Shown here piece after piece: positions 13,279 through 19,355 of a stretch of 64,000 bases of DNA. The translations under genes were made by a program, and so were the position numbers. How positions within the stretch are numbered: position 1 is the first letter of the stretch; each line of letters begins with the position of its first letter. The DNA comes from a virus. The stretch lies in UHGV virus genome UHGV-0036582; one strand, given 5' to 3'. The notes under the pieces are model-generated. The model was not told the origin of the DNA. It saw nothing but the letters and a program-made list of their open reading frames with translations, and did not search any database.

Positions 13279-14061
13279 ATGAAAGAAGAAATTAAGAGAT
13301 TAGCCTGCAACATCATTGATAAAACTGGTTTAGAAATCAGCGAGAGCAATCGGCTAGACATCATTGAAAAAGCCGTCAATACGGCAATGGATCATATCGC
13401 CACTCGTTTGGTCGAGATCCCGCTACCGGGGCTACCTTATCTGAAGGTTAAGTTGCGCGTATGGGGCGAACCTGCACATGCACGACGTTCTGCATTAGTT
13501 GTTTTTGTACGCAAAGAAAACTTACGAACTCTAAAAGTGCAGGTTGGGGCGTGGTTTGATGGCAGAGTCATCTATACAGATACCATTATCTGTCCTCCAG
13601 GTGACGAACATATTGAAGCCGTCATTCGAGAATCAATTCGAGCTATGCGCAGTTTAGCTTTGCTGGAAGACAAGCAAAACTTTGAAGATTACTTGCTGTC
13701 GGTAAAAGCTGAACCAACATTGTCTCTGAAAGCCGATTTCGTCACCCCGACAAATCTGTTGGAGGTTTTGATTAATAAAGGGGCTAATGATGCTGTAAAC
13801 CTAATCAGGGAAAGCGAATATTCGACTCTTTGCGACATGTGCAAAAGCCAGTTGGATCTTGTGCATATCATTGTTGATGCGGGGAAGGCGTGTGATGGCG
13901 TAATGGCGGAATTTGCTGGGAAGATGGTCAGGATTGCTAATGAATTACCGATGATAGAGCAAGAGGCCAAATCATACGCCACCAATCATGTCACAGAGCT
14001 TCTTGCCCCCTATCGCTTAGAAAGCGATCAGCGCAAGATGATTAGCTGGGGAAGTTGGTAA
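13279..14061 (+). CDS. Hypothetical protein
   Basis: 260-aa ORF, no recognisable motif. Confidence 0.45.
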   Translation: MKEEIKRLACNIIDKTGLEISESNRLDIIEKAVNTAMDHIATRLVEIPLPGLPYLKVKLRVWGEPAHARRSALVVFVRKENLRTLKVQVGAWFDGRVIYTDTIICPPGDEHIEAVIRESIRAMRSLALLEDKQNFEDYLLSVKAEPTLSLKADFVTPTNLLEVLINKGANDAVNLIRESEYSTLCDMCKSQLDLVHIIVDAGKACDGVMAEFAGKMVRIANELPMIEQEAKSYATNHVTELLAPYRLESDQRKMISWGSW

Positions 14062-14128
14062 GCTCTCTGTGTGTCGTTTTTTACGCAAATAATGATAGGT
14101 AAGCACAAGATTATTTCTGGCGGTAATT

Positions 14129-14599
14129 GTGAAAGCTGATTTGTCAAAAATCCCTTCTATTTCAGGAAATAACGGTTATTCACTTCGTTGTGAGGAAGTA
14201 AAGATAAACGGTGAGTCGGCATATTGCAGCTATTCCGTTTGCCAGCACACCATTCTTGCCTTCAAAGAAAACCGTCTTCCTCGAACTTCTTTCCAGTCGT
14301 GCGCAACCGCTATTAAAGCAGGCAAATGTAAGGCGTTAAAAATGATGGTTGAAGAGATTCGTAAAGGAGAATCTCTGTATTTCGAAGATATGACCGCACT
14401 CATTAAGGAGGTTGAAGAACGGAATAAACAAGCCAGAACTTTAAAACGAAAACGTGACAGTGTAACTATTAATAGCATGGTTAAGAAGAGCGCCACATCA
14501 CAAACATCGATCTCTGACGTGTATGCGGCATTGCTTGAAGAAACAACAAAAGAAACACATGAGCAAATCGATCAACATATGGAGGCAAAACAACAATGA
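14129..14599 (+). CDS. Hypothetical protein (start uncertain)
   Basis: 156-aa ORF ending where the ligase gene starts. Confidence 0.4.
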   Translation: MKADLSKIPSISGNNGYSLRCEEVKINGESAYCSYSVCQHTILAFKENRLPRTSFQSCATAIKAGKCKALKMMVEEIRKGESLYFEDMTALIKEVEERNKQARTLKRKRDSVTINSMVKKSATSQTSISDVYAALLEETTKETHEQIDQHMEAKQQ

Positions 14600-15918
14600 A
14601 AAAGTTGATCGCACTTAAGCATAAGCTGGACGAAATGAAAGCTATGGGAACCAATGCAAAAAAAGAGGCATTGGCCAACATGGATGACTTCGAGCAAAGC
14701 ATGGTTTCATTGATGCTCAACCCTTTCATCCGTTTTGGGGTAAAGAAATACAAAGTGGCAGAGCCGCTTAGTGAGTCCGTCCCAAGTGACGAAAAAGCCA
14801 TTGATGTACTGAATAAGCTGGCCTCTCGCGAGCTGACGGGGAACGCAGCAATAGCTGCTGTTGAGTCTATCGTGGCGTCAATGTGCGCCGATGGGCAGGA
14901 CGTGTTCCGTCGTTTCCTCTTAAAAGACCCGAAAGCGGGTGTTGGGATTAGCCTATGCAACAAGGTTTTTGAAAATCCCATTCCGAAATTCGAGGTGCAG
15001 CTGGCGTCACCGTATAAAGAAAAAGGCGACAAATACCCCTTCAAGCCAAACCCTAAAGCAAAATGGCCGATGATTGGCAGCCTTAAGCTCGATGGTTTGC
15101 GAGTAATTTGCGAGGTTATTGTTGACGAAGAAGAGGTTAACTTCCTTTCTCGTACTGGTAATCCAATCACGTCTCTCGATCACCTAAAGCCAGCCATGCT
15201 CGAATTAGGCAAACTTTCAGGCCACAAACACATCTTCTTCGATGGTGAAGGCACAGCCGGTTCATTTAACCAGTCCGTATCTGCATTGCGCAAAAAGAAC
15301 GTGCAGGCAATTGGCGCTATTTATCATGTTTTCGACTTCTTCCTACCGGAATGGCGAGCACAGGCTAAATCCAAAGAGTATGCAAAGACAGGTATGAAGC
15401 TGAAAGAGCGCCTGGCTATGCTCGTGGCGTTGTTCAAAAACGATCGCAGTGAAGGCTACGCACAAGACATTCACCTGCATCCGTTCTACATCATCCATAG
15501 CCACGAAGACTTCATCGAACGCTTCATGAAACGCCTGGACGATAACGAAGAAGGGGAGATGGGCAAAGATCCGAACTCTGTTTACGAGTTTAAACGTACC
15601 CGCAGCTGGTGGAAGTTAAAAGACGAAGATTCAGAAGATGGTGAAATTATCGATTTTGAGCCGGGCGACCCGGACTCTGGTTTTGCCAACACGCTTGGGA
15701 AAATTGTTATTCGTCTTGAAAACGGCGTCATCGTTCGTGCGAGCGGCATTAAGCATAAATATCTGGACGAGATCTGGAACAACAAAGAGAAGTACCGTGG
15801 TCGTATTGTCGAGGTTCATTGTCACGAGAAAACACCTGATGGCAGCTTACGCCACCCACGACTGAAATGGCCGCGTTGCTTACGCGATACCGAAGATCGA
15901 ATCGGAGATAAAGAATGA
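14596..15918 (+). CDS. ATP-dependent DNA ligase
   Basis: Adenylation motif I KLDGLR (SLKLDGLRVICEV); 440 aa; motif-like segments FDGEG and EGEMGKDPNSVYEFKRT. Confidence 0.75.
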   Translation: MKKLIALKHKLDEMKAMGTNAKKEALANMDDFEQSMVSLMLNPFIRFGVKKYKVAEPLSESVPSDEKAIDVLNKLASRELTGNAAIAAVESIVASMCADGQDVFRRFLLKDPKAGVGISLCNKVFENPIPKFEVQLASPYKEKGDKYPFKPNPKAKWPMIGSLKLDGLRVICEVIVDEEEVNFLSRTGNPITSLDHLKPAMLELGKLSGHKHIFFDGEGTAGSFNQSVSALRKKNVQAIGAIYHVFDFFLPEWRAQAKSKEYAKTGMKLKERLAMLVALFKNDRSEGYAQDIHLHPFYIIHSHEDFIERFMKRLDDNEEGEMGKDPNSVYEFKRTRSWWKLKDEDSEDGEIIDFEPGDPDSGFANTLGKIVIRLENGVIVRASGIKHKYLDEIWNNKEKYRGRIVEVHCHEKTPDGSLRHPRLKWPRCLRDTEDRIGDKE

Positions 15919-16130
15919 TCGTATTAAGTAAACGGGAGAAAGAAACGCTTCATGAAATAAGTAAGTGGCCGGAGTTCCCTGAGTACTGGAAGCCTAAAAC
16001 GCGAGCTAAGTTAGAGCGTTTAGGGTTGGTTGCAAACGTTTCTGAAACGTGGTGCTCGGCCAACTACCAGTTAACTGATAAAGGGAAATTATTGCTACAG
16101 CAATTAGTAGAATCAGGAGCCTTTAAATGA
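15915..16130 (+). CDS. Hypothetical small protein
   Basis: 71-aa ORF overlapping the ligase stop. Confidence 0.35.
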   Translation: MIVLSKREKETLHEISKWPEFPEYWKPKTRAKLERLGLVANVSETWCSANYQLTDKGKLLLQQLVESGAFK

Positions 16131-16275
16131 TTCCATACATCTCATTAGCTTTTATGGCTGGCTTCCTTATCGGCTTCGGCATCTGTCGTGATTTGATTAA
16201 GCAGGAACTTAAAACCAAAACACTGTGCATCGGGAAGCGTGTGTATCGGGTAGTTCATGAAACAAAGGTGAGAAA

Positions 16276-16566
16276 ATGAGTAATTTAACTTCTTGGGAAT
16301 GGTGGTTGGCAACCTATTTTATGGCAGCCGGAGTCGCATTCGCTTTTTACGTAGGGCAGTTAGTCGTAAAACTGCTGCTGATTAAATTTGCTAGCCATAA
16401 ACGTATTGATGATGGCCTGTGGCGTCTTGGTACCCTTGTGGAAACTCGCTACGGGCAACTTAATGAGAACGAAACCATTACTATCCAAGCGAAACGATTC
16501 ACTGCCACGATCACAAGAACACCTGATCGTAGAGTGGCCTTGATCAAAAAAGTCACAACCGAATAA
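16276..16566 (+). CDS. Hypothetical small membrane protein
   Basis: 96 aa with an N-terminal hydrophobic helix WWLATYFMAAGVAFAFYVGQLVV. Confidence 0.4.
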   Translation: MSNLTSWEWWLATYFMAAGVAFAFYVGQLVVKLLLIKFASHKRIDDGLWRLGTLVETRYGQLNENETITIQAKRFTATITRTPDRRVALIKKVTTE

Positions 16567-17342
16567 AAACATCTCGATAAGTATTTACTTACTTATCTTT
16601 TATGTATAAGATGACTTTGTTTTCGTTGAGACGCGACTGTTTGAACTTAAATACAAGTGCAAACGAAGAAGTCTATCTGGCAGTAGCCTAATAAGCCAAA
16701 CACCAGCGAGGTCAGTTTCCAGCCTCGTTACCGAAATGGGACACACTGAGCGAGTGTGATTGCAGAACGCAGGAGGGAACATTCATGTTCCCTCCGATGA
16801 AGTAACAGAATGGGCGGTTGGTATATTTTCAACTCCATATGACTCCCGGATTCTTAGCCACTGACCGCCCATCCTGTTACGTCATTTTGTTCAATTATGT
16901 CGTTTATACTGGGTTAAAAAGCGGCGACGTAGCCCGGCTGGTATGGTTAGCCAGCACACAACGTTGAGGCCATTACATTTTTATCAATTCTAAGGTTCTA
17001 TTCACAGAGATACCGGCGAGCGTTGATATGTAACATGTTGGGCAAACATTCAATCGGAGTAGTGGCCTCAACGTTGTGAAGACGGGATTGTTGTGTAGGT
17101 TTAACCACTGTTGCCATTGGTGCCTGTTTTCACAACAAATGATTCCATACATCACATTGTATAAATTACAAAGTAGGTGCTGTCCTCAGAAACATCATCT
17201 ACTTAAAGATTTTGCCTTCTATTGAGCGAAGTCGAAAACGTCTGGCACTAACGGAAAGTGCAAGTAGCGGTGCGTTTCCTGGCAGAAACTAACACCGCCG
17301 CGATTGGCACTGTTGAGTAATAAATACTGGCAGTGCTGAATT

Positions 17343-17417
17343 GATGGTGTAGCTCAGCGGTAGAGCAGTTGGCTGTTAACCAACTGGTCGGTGGTTCGAA
17401 TCCACCCACCATCGCCA
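17343..17417 (+). tRNA. tRNA-Asn (anticodon GTT)
   Basis: Hand-folded cloverleaf: acceptor gatggtg/caccatc, D-arm gctcagcggtagagc, anticodon stem gttgg/ccaac with loop ctGTTaa, T-arm ggtggttcgaatccacc, encoded CCA. Confidence 0.8.
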
Positions 17418-17422
17418 ATTTA

Positions 17423-17509
17423 GGGGAGTTAGTCCGTAGGGGCAGCGGGGTAGACTGTAAATCTACTGTCATTGCGACTCGGGTGGTTCGACTCCATCAC
17501 TCCCCACCA
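17423..17509 (+). tRNA. tRNA-Tyr (anticodon GTA), long variable arm
   Basis: Acceptor ggggagt/actcccc, anticodon stem gtaga/tctac with loop ctGTAaa, long variable arm, T-loop ttcgact, encoded CCA. Confidence 0.7.
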
Positions 17510-17513
17510 AATT

Positions 17514-17589
17514 GCCGGTTTAGCTCAGTTGGTAGAGCGCCTGCCTTGTAAGCAGGATGTCAGCGGTTCGAGTCCGCTAACCGGCACCA
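17514..17589 (+). tRNA. tRNA-Thr (anticodon TGT)
   Basis: Acceptor gccggtt/aaccggc, D-arm gctcagttggtagagc, anticodon stem cctgc/gcagg with loop ctTGTaa, T-arm agcggttcgagtccgct, CCA. Confidence 0.8.
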
Positions 17590-17814
17590 ATACAACGATA
17601 AGATCATTACGGTTAATCGTCGTTCATGTGCACAATGACTGGTCGAAAGGTAGTGATCTTACCGTTGTGGTGGATTCGCAGACTGATGCGATAGCTTTCT
17701 TGGATGTTAGGGAAATGCGGCCGCAAATCTTCCCTTTCGCGAGCGGTGATCGTCCGTAGTCCTAATTGGCTGCACCGTATGCCGGAGATTCAGTACCGGC
17801 CACCACAACGGCCG

Positions 17815-17901
17815 GAGAGTAGGGAGCATGGTGCTCAAGCGGTCTTGAAAACCGTCCCATTGCGCAAGCGATGATGGTTCGATTCCATTACTCTCCGCCA
17901 G
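17815..17901 (+). tRNA. tRNA-Ser (anticodon TGA), long variable arm
   Basis: Acceptor ggagagt/actctcc, anticodon loop ctTGAaa, long variable arm, T-arm gatggttcgattccatt, CCA; some stems rely on G-U pairs, so less certain. Confidence 0.6.
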
Positions 17902-18054
17902 ACACAGCGTTGAGCGGTTTGGCCTTTTAATCAACTCGATTAAGACTCCGCTAACATAAACCAGACCGCTCAACGCTGTGATAGACAATTACGGCAGACG
18001 TTCTTAACCATAGCTTGCTAACATCCTAGCAACACTTTTTTCAGCGCAAAATTC

Positions 18055-18078
18055 AAAGGGGCTTCGGCCCCTTTTTTG
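18055..18078. terminator. Bidirectional rho-independent terminator between the tRNA cluster and the convergent minus-strand gene
   Basis: aaaggggc-ttcg-gccccttttttg: GC stem with an A-tract on one side and a T-tract on the other. Confidence 0.8.
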
Positions 18079-18092
18079 TTGAACAGTGCAAT

Positions 18093-19355
18093 TTACTTTG
18101 CATAGTCGCCCAATTTTAATATTTCGCGCTTATATTCATTAACCATGCTACTGGATTCAGTATAAATTCGATTTAAAAGATTATCGTTATCTTTATTTTC
18201 ATTTATCTTAATTAGTGCTAATTTATATTCATAGTCATCAAATGCCACAATTAAATGGTGGCCTGGGATTATATCTTCGTCACTCTTAAAGTATATATCT
18301 TCAAGTATGTAATCTAGTTGATTAGATTTTCTTTTCTCGATGTAATCTTCAGCCATAGCTATTACATCATTCCTGTCATTTAACCTGTTTTTTTCGGAAG
18401 GCACATCTTCGTAATGTTGCACGATTGAACAACCAATAAGGCGTGGGATGTAAACGTCAAAATGAGTAACTCTATCATTCGCGGTTTTAAGTAGTTCCTC
18501 AAAGTAGTTTCTTACATGTAAAGGCAACTTCTCAAAGTAATCATTAATTATAGGAGAACAAGGAGTTTTATAATTCATAAGAACCGACGGTACGAGCTTT
18601 GGGTGTCGAAACATCCAGTCCCTTTTAACGTCCGATGGAACATAATAACTTTTAATGATATTATCAAAATAATTTATCATTCGAGATTTGAATATTTTGT
18701 TGAATCTAAGGTTTATGAATGTATCCAGATAAGGCATATTTGAATAAGCATCATCAAAAAATATTTCATCATTGAAAAAATCATATTTATTCAATAAACA
18801 ACACAGTTTTTCCGAATTAATATGTTCACAATAATCGATTTTTAATCCAAAGATAGCAATGATCAACTTCATCTGAGGTGGGATTTTAAAAATTAATTGT
18901 GACACATACGCTCTTTTTTCCTTGAGACATTCCCCATCAATATAAAATGAACCATCCACATACTCAAATATATTAATAATATGCTTCACATACTGTATTA
19001 CCTCATGCTGTCTTACCAATGGATAATATAGTCTATGTAACTCATCGCTGTTTAAATTAATTTTGTGTTTATCGATAATTTGTTTTGCAAGAAGACATAA
19101 CTCATCATGTTGATTTAATAAGGAATCAAACCATTGTTTAAATGCACTCTTTCGCATTTCGAACAATGATTCAGTTGTTAATTGAAGGGCTGAAAAAGCT
19201 GCTTTTGCACTTTTTCTCGCTTCGTAGGCATTCCATGCTGTTGCTATAAAAGCAAATGCTGTAGCCAATGTTCCAACAGTTTGACCATTTAAAACAACCC
19301 AATCCCAAAAAATGACGGTGAGCAGTAGTATAATAATGAAAATTAAAAAAGGCAT
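18093..19355 (-). CDS. Low-GC membrane-anchored protein of unknown function (two N-terminal TM helices, about 350-aa cytoplasmic domain)
   Basis: 420-aa ORF, visibly far more AT-rich than its neighbours; TM helices FLIFIIILLLTVIFWDWVVL and LATAFAFIATAWNAY; Asn/Tyr/Phe/Lys/Asp-rich remainder with no recognisable catalytic motif. Confidence 0.6.
   Translation of the reverse strand: MPFLIFIIILLLTVIFWDWVVLNGQTVGTLATAFAFIATAWNAYEARKSAKAAFSALQLTTESLFEMRKSAFKQWFDSLLNQHDELCLLAKQIIDKHKINLNSDELHRLYYPLVRQHEVIQYVKHIINIFEYVDGSFYIDGECLKEKRAYVSQLIFKIPPQMKLIIAIFGLKIDYCEHINSEKLCCLLNKYDFFNDEIFFDDAYSNMPYLDTFINLRFNKIFKSRMINYFDNIIKSYYVPSDVKRDWMFRHPKLVPSVLMNYKTPCSPIINDYFEKLPLHVRNYFEELLKTANDRVTHFDVYIPRLIGCSIVQHYEDVPSEKNRLNDRNDVIAMAEDYIEKRKSNQLDYILEDIYFKSDEDIIPGHHLIVAFDDYEYKLALIKINENKDNDNLLNRIYTESSSMVNEYKREILKLGDYAK

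Follow-up and report, generated by a model that had tools for sequence, protein, structure and literature searches.

What fills the gap between two neighbouring tRNA genes of a phage, and what are such genes carried for? The question is raised by UHGV virus genome UHGV-0036582, of which a stretch of 64,000 nt was analysed (the window; positions refer to it, and positions preceded by an L number refer to other loci). Genes for tRNA-Asn, tRNA-Tyr, tRNA-Thr and tRNA-Ser lie at 17343-17901 on the plus strand, with a long spacer between the last two. An element in the spacer belongs to a large family of phage RNAs, in which the ends hardly vary, the fold covaries and the insert is hypervariable. 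We call this element M2; M2 and Hp, the name given below to a family of hairpins, are labels coined for this analysis only.

The element between the Thr and Ser genes

An earlier note on this DNA, made from the sequence without database searches, had pointed out the spacer and suggested that it may hide a degenerate tRNA. The spacer is indeed present, with a length of 224 nt (17590-17813) rather than the 225 given in the note. No tRNA was reported inside it by ARAGORN at the 80% threshold, and the Rfam tRNA model gave no match at E ≤ 10; at the same E-value cmscan detected no tRNA-clan match in the spacer, nor in the minimal member of the M2 family. Lowering the ARAGORN threshold to 70% for a 1,650-nt region produced 10 calls, the four real genes and six at noise level, and a single one of the latter (Ile-aat, over the hairpin HpB) falls within the spacer. 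The suggestion of a degenerate tRNA was nevertheless right in spirit: the spacer holds a conserved tRNA-shaped RNA under selection. It consists of two parts, the hairpin HpB (17592-17669) and the multi-helix element M2 (17664-17809).

M2 was detected as a single copy in the window, on the plus strand, by covariance model R1 (72.4 bits, E = 5.6e-16). Its 7-bp closing stem P1 (17666-17672 with 17801-17807) encloses a D-like hairpin P2 (17676-17680 with 17687-17691, loop L2 at 17681-17686), a variable insert (17692-17780) and a 5-bp T-like hairpin P3 (17781-17785 with 17796-17800, loop L3 at 17786-17795). The two loops pair with each other, ACUGA of L2 (17682-17686) with UCAGU of L3 (17790-17794). 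In the family consensus, P1 is UGUGGUG/CACCACA (7 bp) and is followed by a linker AAU; P2 is made of GCGCA, the loop GGCUGA and UGCGC; the insert measures 7-161 nt (median 70); and P3, made of GCCGG, the loop AGAUCAGCA and CCGGC, runs straight into the 3′ strand of P1.

Among 64 distinct M2 sequences, 93.9-95.0% of cells were paired and 9-10 pairs were altered on both sides. None of 500 shuffles reached any of these measures, and slid controls gave 26-56%. The consensus loops are complementary (GCUGA/UCAGC), and with the 5-bp loop-loop helix added the pairing is 99.1%. The sole variable pair of this helix is GC in 56 sequences, GU in five and AU in three; two sequences outside the 64-sequence alignment have A opposite C in a loop-loop pair. 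The G-U pairs of M2 form on the tRNA strand only. Since the 5′ half of most M2 sequences was fixed by the search pattern, the fair tests of the fold are P3, the 3′ strand of P1, the free positions and a set of sequences seeded on the 3′ end (see below). The smallest natural M2, with an insert of 7-12 nt, folds into the same three-helix junction.

The architecture is that of a tRNA in outline. P1 is continuous with P3, as in the acceptor/T-arm stack, P2 stands in the place of the D-arm and the insert takes the place of the anticodon and variable arms; in this model the loop-loop helix would form a tRNA-like elbow. M2 is thus tRNA-shaped but no tRNA: it lacks both an anticodon arm and a CCA tail and is unseen by tRNA detectors.

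No Rfam 15 family reached its gathering score for M2 or the hairpins, either in the window or at 20 further M2 loci; at E ≤ 10 only fragments appeared, a RydB hairpin with 13.7 bits and AgvB with 16 bits. The possibility of RydB being a relic of M2 was rejected, as only a 17-nt P3-like hairpin is common to both (10.3 bits, E = 0.08). The rydB hairpin of Escherichia coli K-12, GCCGGAGAUAAGCGCCGG (L196:2223-2239), nearly matches the P3 hairpin, and no other part of M2 is found with it. The AgvB model weakly matches the CA-rich flank that comes after M2, together with a terminator (L138:6620-6704, 16 bits). The put element of phage HK022 is described as two adjacent ~35-nt stem-loops, about 70 nt in all, V-shaped and located just downstream of an early promoter (PMC9378689). 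Compared with this description, M2 differs in that its three helices form a closed junction, which includes a variable insert, and a put-like element was rejected. Searches of the full-text literature by core sequences (one unrelated primer) or by keywords (which otherwise gave Pas sRNAs) returned no description of the motif, a catalogue of 10,006 viral RNA candidates (PMC10690425) being itself outside this search.

The window copy of M2 shares 97.5% identity with part of the P7 and D6 spacers and 75%, with several compensatory changes, with an intergenic stretch in Klebsiella Jedunavirus BUCT_49532. In the latter (L004:2363-3157) M2 directly follows an HNH endonuclease gene that is free-standing; the insertion is on the opposite strand and is surrounded by baseplate and tape-measure genes, an arrangement which suggests that M2 can travel with mobile cassettes. 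The 5′-end pattern GTGGTGNATNCGCAGNCTGATGCG was found in more than 120 IMG/VR contigs, a number to be taken as a lower bound. A seed placed on the 3′ end, with one genome per species, gave 19 genomes, and 18 of them have the near-invariant 5′ end. This set includes Pectobacterium, Serratia, Pantoea, Aeromonas, a metagenome-assembled genome of Moraxellaceae and the Burkholderiales Xenophilus, Ramlibacter and Undibacterium; Massilia gave no match to the relaxed 5′ pattern, but a near-copy of the motif can be seen upstream there. M2 is present in 137 phage records, among them HK620, mEp460, Stx phages, P1-like phages, Klebsiella siphoviruses and Ackermannviridae of 158-160 kb. In phage Cyrano, a close relative of the window, model R1 detected no M2.

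Model R1 also recovered members on which it had not been trained: the dicF-dicB spacer of K-12, a distant relation within the family (L167:4455-4582, i.e. NC_000913.3 1649454-1649581; 32.6 bits, E = 6e-6) and the tciA/terB leaders of P7, D6 and JL22 (29.9-34.6 bits). One and the same M2 variant stands ahead of dicB in the Qin prophage and ahead of tciA/terB in P1-like phages. In the P1-like JL22, an Hp/M2 array with three R1 copies and one reduced 'mini-M2' is located between tRNA-Thr and tciA. The open reading frames (ORFs) plp and upl overlie this array on the opposite strand (L166:2543-2875) and may be mis-annotated. Klebsiella SSU5-like plasmids have an Hp hairpin and a mini-M2 before the same tRNA-Ser (e.g. 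vB_KpnS_p4727, L191:1064-1206, with the P3 loop AGAUAAGCA). Since R1 misses the mini form, the family is larger than this model sees.

The contexts of M2 are of several kinds: sites next to cI-like repressors, just downstream of an early-left promoter; in HK620, the pR′ late leader ahead of tQ; tRNA operons; and long unannotated stretches of virulent phages. A same-strand tRNA was found within 300 nt in 31 of 138 instances, and only 7-21 nt separate the end of M2 from a tRNA in several phages that are unrelated to each other (the tRNA being Ser-UGA, Arg-UCU, Met/Ile-CAU or Ser-GCU). An intrinsic terminator occurs within 120 nt downstream of M2 in 28 of 106 unique contexts, a DicF-like sequence in 14. 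The inserts are of discrete, recurring types; one of them, AGCTAGATGGTGAGGTAATGGCTCACCATGGCGACGA, recurs in L112, L122 and L134 and looks like what we take to be the 16S rRNA segment around nt 240-290. An antisense relation of the insert to its flanks was rejected: the mean longest match is 9.2 nt (9.0 nt in shuffled sequences), and one insert of 89 exceeds its shuffles.

Hairpins and tRNA genes in a mosaic array

The array around M2 contains three paralogous plus-strand hairpins. HpA (16957-17078; inverted repeat I3, 95% complementary, z = -5.9) has the 20-bp stem CACAACGTTGAGGCCATTAC / GTAGTGGCCTCAACGTTGTG; HpB (17592-17669; inverted repeat I2, z = -4.2) has the ~20-bp stem ACAACGATAAGATCATTAC / GTAGTGATCTTACCGTTGT; and HpC (17903-17980; inverted repeat I4, 95% complementary, z = -9.7) has the 20-bp stem CACAGCGTTGAGCGGTTTGG / CCAGACCGCTCAACGCTGTG. 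By these z-scores all three fold much more stably than shuffled sequences. With arms of 20-24 nt that are 83-95% complementary, they reach the length of near-continuous duplex, about 20 bp or more, that is typical of RNase III sites. The base of the stem, CACA(A/G)CG...CG(T/C)TGTG, is common to them; the mid-stems differ and yet are complementary (GAGGCC/GGCCTC in HpA, AAGATC/GATCTT in HpB and GAGCGG/CCGCTC in HpC). Directly after HpA, on the same strand, comes a small stem-loop closed by GUUGUGAAGAC / GUUUUCACAAC (17073-17136; inverted repeat I11, z = -2.9). It occupies the slot that M2 or mini-M2 has after Hp in related loci and may be related to M2.

HpC is kept after tRNA-Ser in Cyrano and in Klebsiella phage-plasmids. 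Elsewhere, hairpins of the Hp family are found upstream of M2, with at least 17 of 20 bases complementary in 47 of 128 contexts (1 of 128 for shuffled arms) and with highly diverse arm sequences. Some Hp interiors contain a T-arm-like GGTTCGAATCC stem-loop (L166:2419-2500; also upstream of L050, L069, L134 and L143), and such interiors have the look of tRNA remnants whose 'acceptor' stem is very long. Integron attC-like sites were rejected on inspection, as the GTTRRRY and RYYYAAC motifs of HpC are in the wrong order.

A homologous hairpin is located in the Qin prophage of K-12, upstream of dicF (L167:4173-4258, z = -3.1). RNase III processing upstream of DicF in the dicBF transcript was reportedly described by Faubladier in 1990. 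A DicF species of 190 nt is lost in an rnc mutant (PMC10448788), and its expected 5′ end (4435-190+1, about L167:4246) is inside the 3′ arm of the Qin hairpin; no position in the K-12 sequence could be assigned to the published RNase III coordinate, 813/814 (PMC10448788). From the homology to the Qin hairpin and the size of the DicF RNA, the Hp elements are predicted to be RNase III-type processing sites.

The composition of the array varies among relatives. The order is Asn, Thr, an 8-nt gap and Ser in Cyrano (without Tyr and without the spacer block); Asn, Thr, about 450 nt and Ser in P7 and D6; Asn, Tyr and Thr in the P1-like Ro157c2YLVW; and Asn, a 147-nt block of Hp and mini-M2, and Ser in Klebsiella relatives, with no Thr or Tyr. 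Comparison with Cyrano places the edges of the Tyr indel at ...GCCAA/T... and ...ACCAAAT/T... (slash at the junction), and those of the HpB+M2 indel at CACCAA(T/C)ACAAC (left edge) and CACCACAAC (right edge). Judging from these junctions, Tyr and HpB+M2 are presence/absence modules joined at short repeats with a tRNA-type CCA start. M2 is dispensable for having the Ser gene, since the natural arrangement in Cyrano is Thr, 8 nt, Ser. By sequence comparison, the tRNA cluster is a mosaic cassette that the window has in common with P1, P7 and D6.

Exactly four tRNA genes were reported by ARAGORN in the whole 64-kb window, all on the plus strand and where the earlier note had placed them, and a 3′ CCA is encoded in each. 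These are tRNA-Asn(GTT) at 17343-17417 (Rfam tRNA model, 75.5 bits), a type II tRNA-Tyr(GTA) at 17423-17509 (39.7 bits), tRNA-Thr(TGT) at 17514-17589 (76.5 bits) and an atypical type II tRNA-Ser(TGA) at 17814-17900. The last one is below the threshold of the Rfam tRNA model (gathering score 29) and obtained 46.6 bits from the tRNA-Sec model, just under the gathering score of 47; in the ARAGORN drawing it has A8 instead of U, a 4-bp D-stem and a 5-nt D-loop. Between its E. coli and Klebsiella versions, acceptor pair 5 changes from A-U to G-C, acceptor pair 6 from G-C to A-U and one D-stem pair from A-U to G-C, with the anticodon arm, variable arm and T-arm unchanged. Because these compensatory changes keep the fold, tRNA-Ser is a real, constrained tRNA-type gene. 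ARAGORN detected a tRNA-Ser(tga) in P7 as well (AF503408, L002:4551-4637), 7 nt past M2, where the P7 annotation has none; a remark in the D6 record says that tRNAscan-SE gave no amino acid for its tRNA-Ser. The serine identity is the probable one given the anticodon, the long variable arm and G73. As such, a set of four tRNAs on a phage-plasmid is ordinary, and such cassettes are known from P1.

The 1.2-kb tRNA locus matches 'Escherichia phage CMS-2020a' at 98.4% identity and Cyrano at about 97%, both being ~108-kb elements with primase, ligase, glutaredoxin and integrase as neighbours. It was found again in 1,105 plasmid records, nearly all non-mobilizable and of ~90-120 kb, and 146 plasmid records cover at least 80% of it. 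By these matches the window is assigned to an SSU5/Cyrano-like E. coli phage-plasmid.

The upstream ORFs (13279-16566) are all on the plus strand, and no terminator-like site was found between them and the tRNAs or inside the array. A strong intrinsic terminator, an 8-bp GC-rich stem followed by a T-run, closes the array at 18055-18082 (plus strand), and the ORF that comes after it (18093-19355) is convergent, on the minus strand. From the strands of the ORFs and the positions of terminators, the tRNAs lie in the ~1.5-kb untranslated 3′ tail of a plus-strand operon, from ~16570 to the terminator. The untranslated leader ahead of tRNA-Asn (775 nt) is near-identical in Cyrano; its plus-strand hairpin with 22-nt arms (16797-16885; inverted repeat I1, 91% complementary; -36.5 kcal/mol, z = -5.8) is fully identical there. 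The leader also contains a perfect 11-bp palindrome (16772-16795). The AT-rich minus-strand ORF at 18093-19355 (420 aa) belongs to phrog_18168 (unknown function), is not at this position in Cyrano and gave no Pfam or PADLOC match; it resembles a variable accessory gene, placed between the integrase and the tRNA array. With phrog_18168 as its only assignment, a defence or anticodon-nuclease gene adjoining the cluster was rejected.

A probable single precursor and possible uses of its parts

How could such an array work? With moderate confidence, we favour the following mechanism. The array is built from interchangeable RNA modules (four tRNAs, three paralogous hairpins and one M2) and would be transcribed as a single precursor. 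RNase III would cut the long Hp stems, as at the homologous hairpin upstream of DicF in Qin, and RNase P together with the tRNA 3′-end enzymes would free the tRNAs. M2 would be handled by the same host machinery, because it copies the acceptor/T-arm geometry, and is most likely a tRNA-like processing or stabilising module: a stable, self-folding and insulating unit that may set and protect the ends of its neighbours. In the window the neighbour would be the atypical tRNA-Ser, which starts 7 nt after the P1 stem; elsewhere, the neighbours would be other tRNAs, DicF-like sRNAs and the dicB and tciA mRNAs. The tRNAs would serve mainly to decode the AT-richer codon usage of the element, chiefly ACA and UCA and to a smaller extent Asn and Tyr codons.

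Codon usage was compared between 64 ORFs of the window (17,644 codons) and 42 annotated K-12 genes (14,790 codons). ACA is used 16.4 times per 1000 codons in the window and 5.4 times in K-12 (3.0x), TCA 13.9 and 5.2 times (2.7x). These are the codons best read by Thr(UGU) and Ser(UGA), and thrU and serT, both contained in the K-12 regions examined, are to our knowledge the sole K-12 genes for the two isoacceptors. The Asn codons total 46.0 per 1000 in the window vs 37.6 in K-12 (1.2x) and the Tyr codons 33.7 vs 26.0 (1.3x); E. coli has several asn and tyr genes. The earlier note had proposed both the comparison and the idea that these tRNAs compensate codon usage. A bias toward ACA and TCA was seen, so that compensation is borne out for Thr and Ser and is weak for Asn and Tyr. 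The set is another case of codon supply fitting some phage tRNAs and not others.

Several observations weigh against the proposed mechanism. The most enriched codons, AGA (6.3x), AGG (4.5x) and ATA (3.9x), have no tRNA in the cluster, and codon supply accounts only weakly for Asn and Tyr. A sigma-70 consensus promoter was absent in a scan of 16400-18200. M2 has no CCA tail and is called neither by ARAGORN nor by the Rfam tRNA model; its recognition by RNase P would follow from geometry, and the assignment of RNase III would follow from one homologous site, placed only by a reported RNA size. No tRNA is found within 300 nt of 107 of the 138 M2 copies, and M2 also occurs in virulent phages with no tRNA nearby; the role of M2 cannot be specific to tRNA-Ser, since most copies are without a tRNA nearby. 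A pure processing role leaves unexplained the near-invariant ends, from Enterobacterales to Burkholderiales. Finally, knock-down of trnT, plp and upl, the equivalent region of P1, by CRISPR interference left lytic growth unaffected in the laboratory (PMC10695390).

More tentatively, and with the odds somewhat against it in our estimate, M2 may represent an undescribed, widespread class of phage RNA, a tRNA-shaped scaffold that uses the host tRNA machinery and serves as a processing cassette or as a tRNA decoy. If so, members of the M2 class would hitherto have been read as spacer (dicF-dicB of K-12) or as protein-coding (plp/upl of P1). The analysis shows that the non-coding gaps in the tRNA/sRNA regions of P1-like, SSU5-like and lambdoid phages, Jedunavirus and Ackermannviridae consist of two recurrent RNA modules, one of them the very strongly conserved tRNA-shaped fold. 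As a processing handle, M2 would explain how many small RNAs come from one phage transcript and would offer a natural scaffold for engineering; as a decoy, it would be a new player in tRNA-centred phage defence. Re-annotation is suggested for P1 plp/upl and for the tRNA-Ser of P7, and the leader of the cell-division inhibitor gene dicB is to be re-read. The spacer M2 and the RNase III-type hairpins lift the interest of the locus above that of the tRNA set alone.

For the tRNAs, a use in bypassing defence, also raised in the earlier note, is possible though doubtful, and it is compatible with codon supply. The tRNAs, chiefly Tyr and Asn, would refill pools lost to tRNA-cleaving defences or toxins, possible candidates being PtuAB of retron-Eco7 for tRNA-Tyr and colicin E5-type nucleases for GUN/QUN tRNAs. 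A precedent exists: retron-Eco7 PtuAB degrades tRNA-Tyr, and the highly expressed tRNA-Tyr of phage T5 rescues infection (PMC11555353). The tRNA-Tyr of the window is an accessory insertion, absent in Cyrano, and comes from a phage-borne lineage with 1,388 phage records; it is 98.9% identical to that of Ro157c2YLVW, 88-92% to T4-like and rV5-like, 79% to T5-like and 63% to host tyrU genes. With Asn and Tyr codons only 1.2-1.3x up and several host genes for both, codon supply is a weak reason for carrying these two tRNAs. In mycobacteriophage tRNAs, anticodon-loop mutations allow escape from nucleases (PMC10264068). Here escape of this type was rejected, as all four 7-nt anticodon loops equal those of K-12 (CUGUUAA of asnT, CUGUAAA of tyrU, CUUGUAA of thrU and CUUGAAA of serT), in tRNA bodies that are 51-80% identical to their K-12 counterparts (Asn/asnT 64%, Tyr/tyrU 63%, Thr/thrU 80%). 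Because the loops equal those of the host, only replenishment could bypass defence, and a nuclease that reads the loop should cleave the phage copies as well. Besides, Thr(UGU) and Ser(UGA) are better accounted for by codon use, and no known anticodon nuclease or anti-defence gene was found beside the cluster. In any case, tRNA-Tyr is a testable anti-retron candidate on a phage-plasmid.

A role of M2 in trans is unlikely. M2 would then be a tRNA mimic or scaffold that binds a conserved host or defence protein, with the insert as cargo or specificity domain; the partner would be of the type of a tRNA-binding nuclease, a modification enzyme or a ribosomal site. Such a role would agree with a core sequence whose conservation is extreme, both among prophages of Gamma- and Betaproteobacteria and between virulent and temperate phages, around an insert of 7-161 nt, with the lack of a conserved protein neighbour of M2 and with the terminator that often follows M2, as it would a stand-alone small RNA gene. 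However, the inserts have no complementarity to same-strand flanks beyond that of shuffles (9.2 vs 9.0 nt, as given above), and the minimal member, with its insert of 7-12 nt, means that the insert is dispensable.

We regard as quite improbable that Hp and M2 form a nut-like or rrn-like antitermination signal that shields long untranslated transcripts from Rho. The boxA-like string TGCTCTTT of the Hp 3′ arm, which we take to be the core of rrn boxA, would be followed 12 nt later by the P2 hairpin as boxB. The commonest Hp 3′ arm, CAGTGCTCTTTCCGTTGTG, contains TGCTCTTT, and 30 of 95 unique contexts have YGCTCTTW; M2 is located near early-left promoters beside cI-like repressors and in the pR′ leader of HK620, and the arrays are long and untranslated. 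Still, the boxA-like string is locked in a very stable ~20-bp stem, and only a third of the copies have it. HpA and HpC are further from the consensus, and HpB of the window (arm 17650-17669) has TGATCTTA at the boxA-like site, or UGAUCUUA when set against boxA (YGCUCUUW). Intrinsic terminators commonly follow M2, evidently as ends (in the window, ahead of a convergent gene), and P1, P3 and the loop-loop pairing have no counterpart in nut sites. The put element of HK022, a two-stem-loop RNA of ~70 nt, is a different structure (PMC9378689). An N-like protein downstream of M2 in a prophage (L163) was considered and rejected: YfdP has no arginine-rich motif.

There is hardly any chance that the spacer is debris, whether a decayed tRNA, a recombination scar or DNA junctions for module shuffling without RNA function. 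In favour of debris, M2 has at its right end ACCGGCCACCACAAC, which is similar to the 3′ end and trailer of tRNA-Thr (ACCGGCACCAACACAA in Cyrano), Cyrano keeps the flanking tRNAs without HpB+M2, some Hp interiors have T-arm-like GGTTCGAATCC segments and the equivalent P1 region is non-essential in the laboratory (PMC10695390). Against it, compensatory and G-U changes keep the three helices and the loop-loop pairing on one strand only, and the ends are near-invariant in hundreds of unrelated phages with an insert that changes freely, a hallmark of selection on an RNA fold and not of decay.

Comparison with known systems

The nearest parallel for the tRNA-Tyr is the T5 gene acting against retron-Eco7 (PMC11555353): both are phage-borne tRNA-Tyr(GUA) genes of the same broad lineage, about 79% identical. 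Unlike T5, the window belongs to a temperate phage-plasmid.

The Hp hairpins compare with the Qin hairpin upstream of DicF. Alike are the base arms CAYAAC...GTTGTG and the mid-stem AAGMGCA / TGCKCTT, the ~20-bp stem around a variable interior and the location in an untranslated stretch of a phage operon, beside small RNAs. The two differ in that cleavage is mapped (approximately) in Qin only, and in that the mid-stems of the window are different, complementarity being kept by compensatory changes.

P1/P7 (trnA-Asn, trnT-Thr and trnI, located in the C1-controlled ban operon) and D6 have homologous Asn and Thr genes, about 92-94% identical and in the same order; in P7 and D6 the same atypical tRNA-Ser(UGA) follows M2. 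The untranslated arrays of P1, P7 and D6 have the same hairpin and M2 modules. The window, in contrast, is an unrelated SSU5/Cyrano-like replicon, where the tRNA locus neighbours ligase, glutaredoxin and integrase. It has a tRNA-Tyr in addition, and its spacer is shorter, containing a single Hp+M2 unit; the P1-like JL22 has three R1-detected M2 copies and a mini-M2. Also, the tciA, ban and tRNA-Ile genes of P1/P7 are absent downstream.

Among tRNA mimics and tRNA-like handles are the bacterial Y RNA YrlA, the RNase P-cut precursors of P1/P7 C4 and P4 CI RNA, mascRNA and the herpesvirus tRNA-miRNA units. The Rfam models of YrlA and C4 do not match M2, and YrlA ends in a Ro-binding stem, whereas M2 ends in an acceptor-like stem. 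Unlike these mimics, M2 has an elbow of 5 Watson-Crick base pairs between loops instead of a T-loop/D-loop contact, no CCA, and a hypervariable insert in the place of the anticodon arm. What it has in common with them is the acceptor/T-arm coaxial stack of 7 + 5 bp and an elbow-like loop-loop contact and, as with tRNA-like processing handles, the location within a polycistronic non-coding transcript beside other small RNAs.

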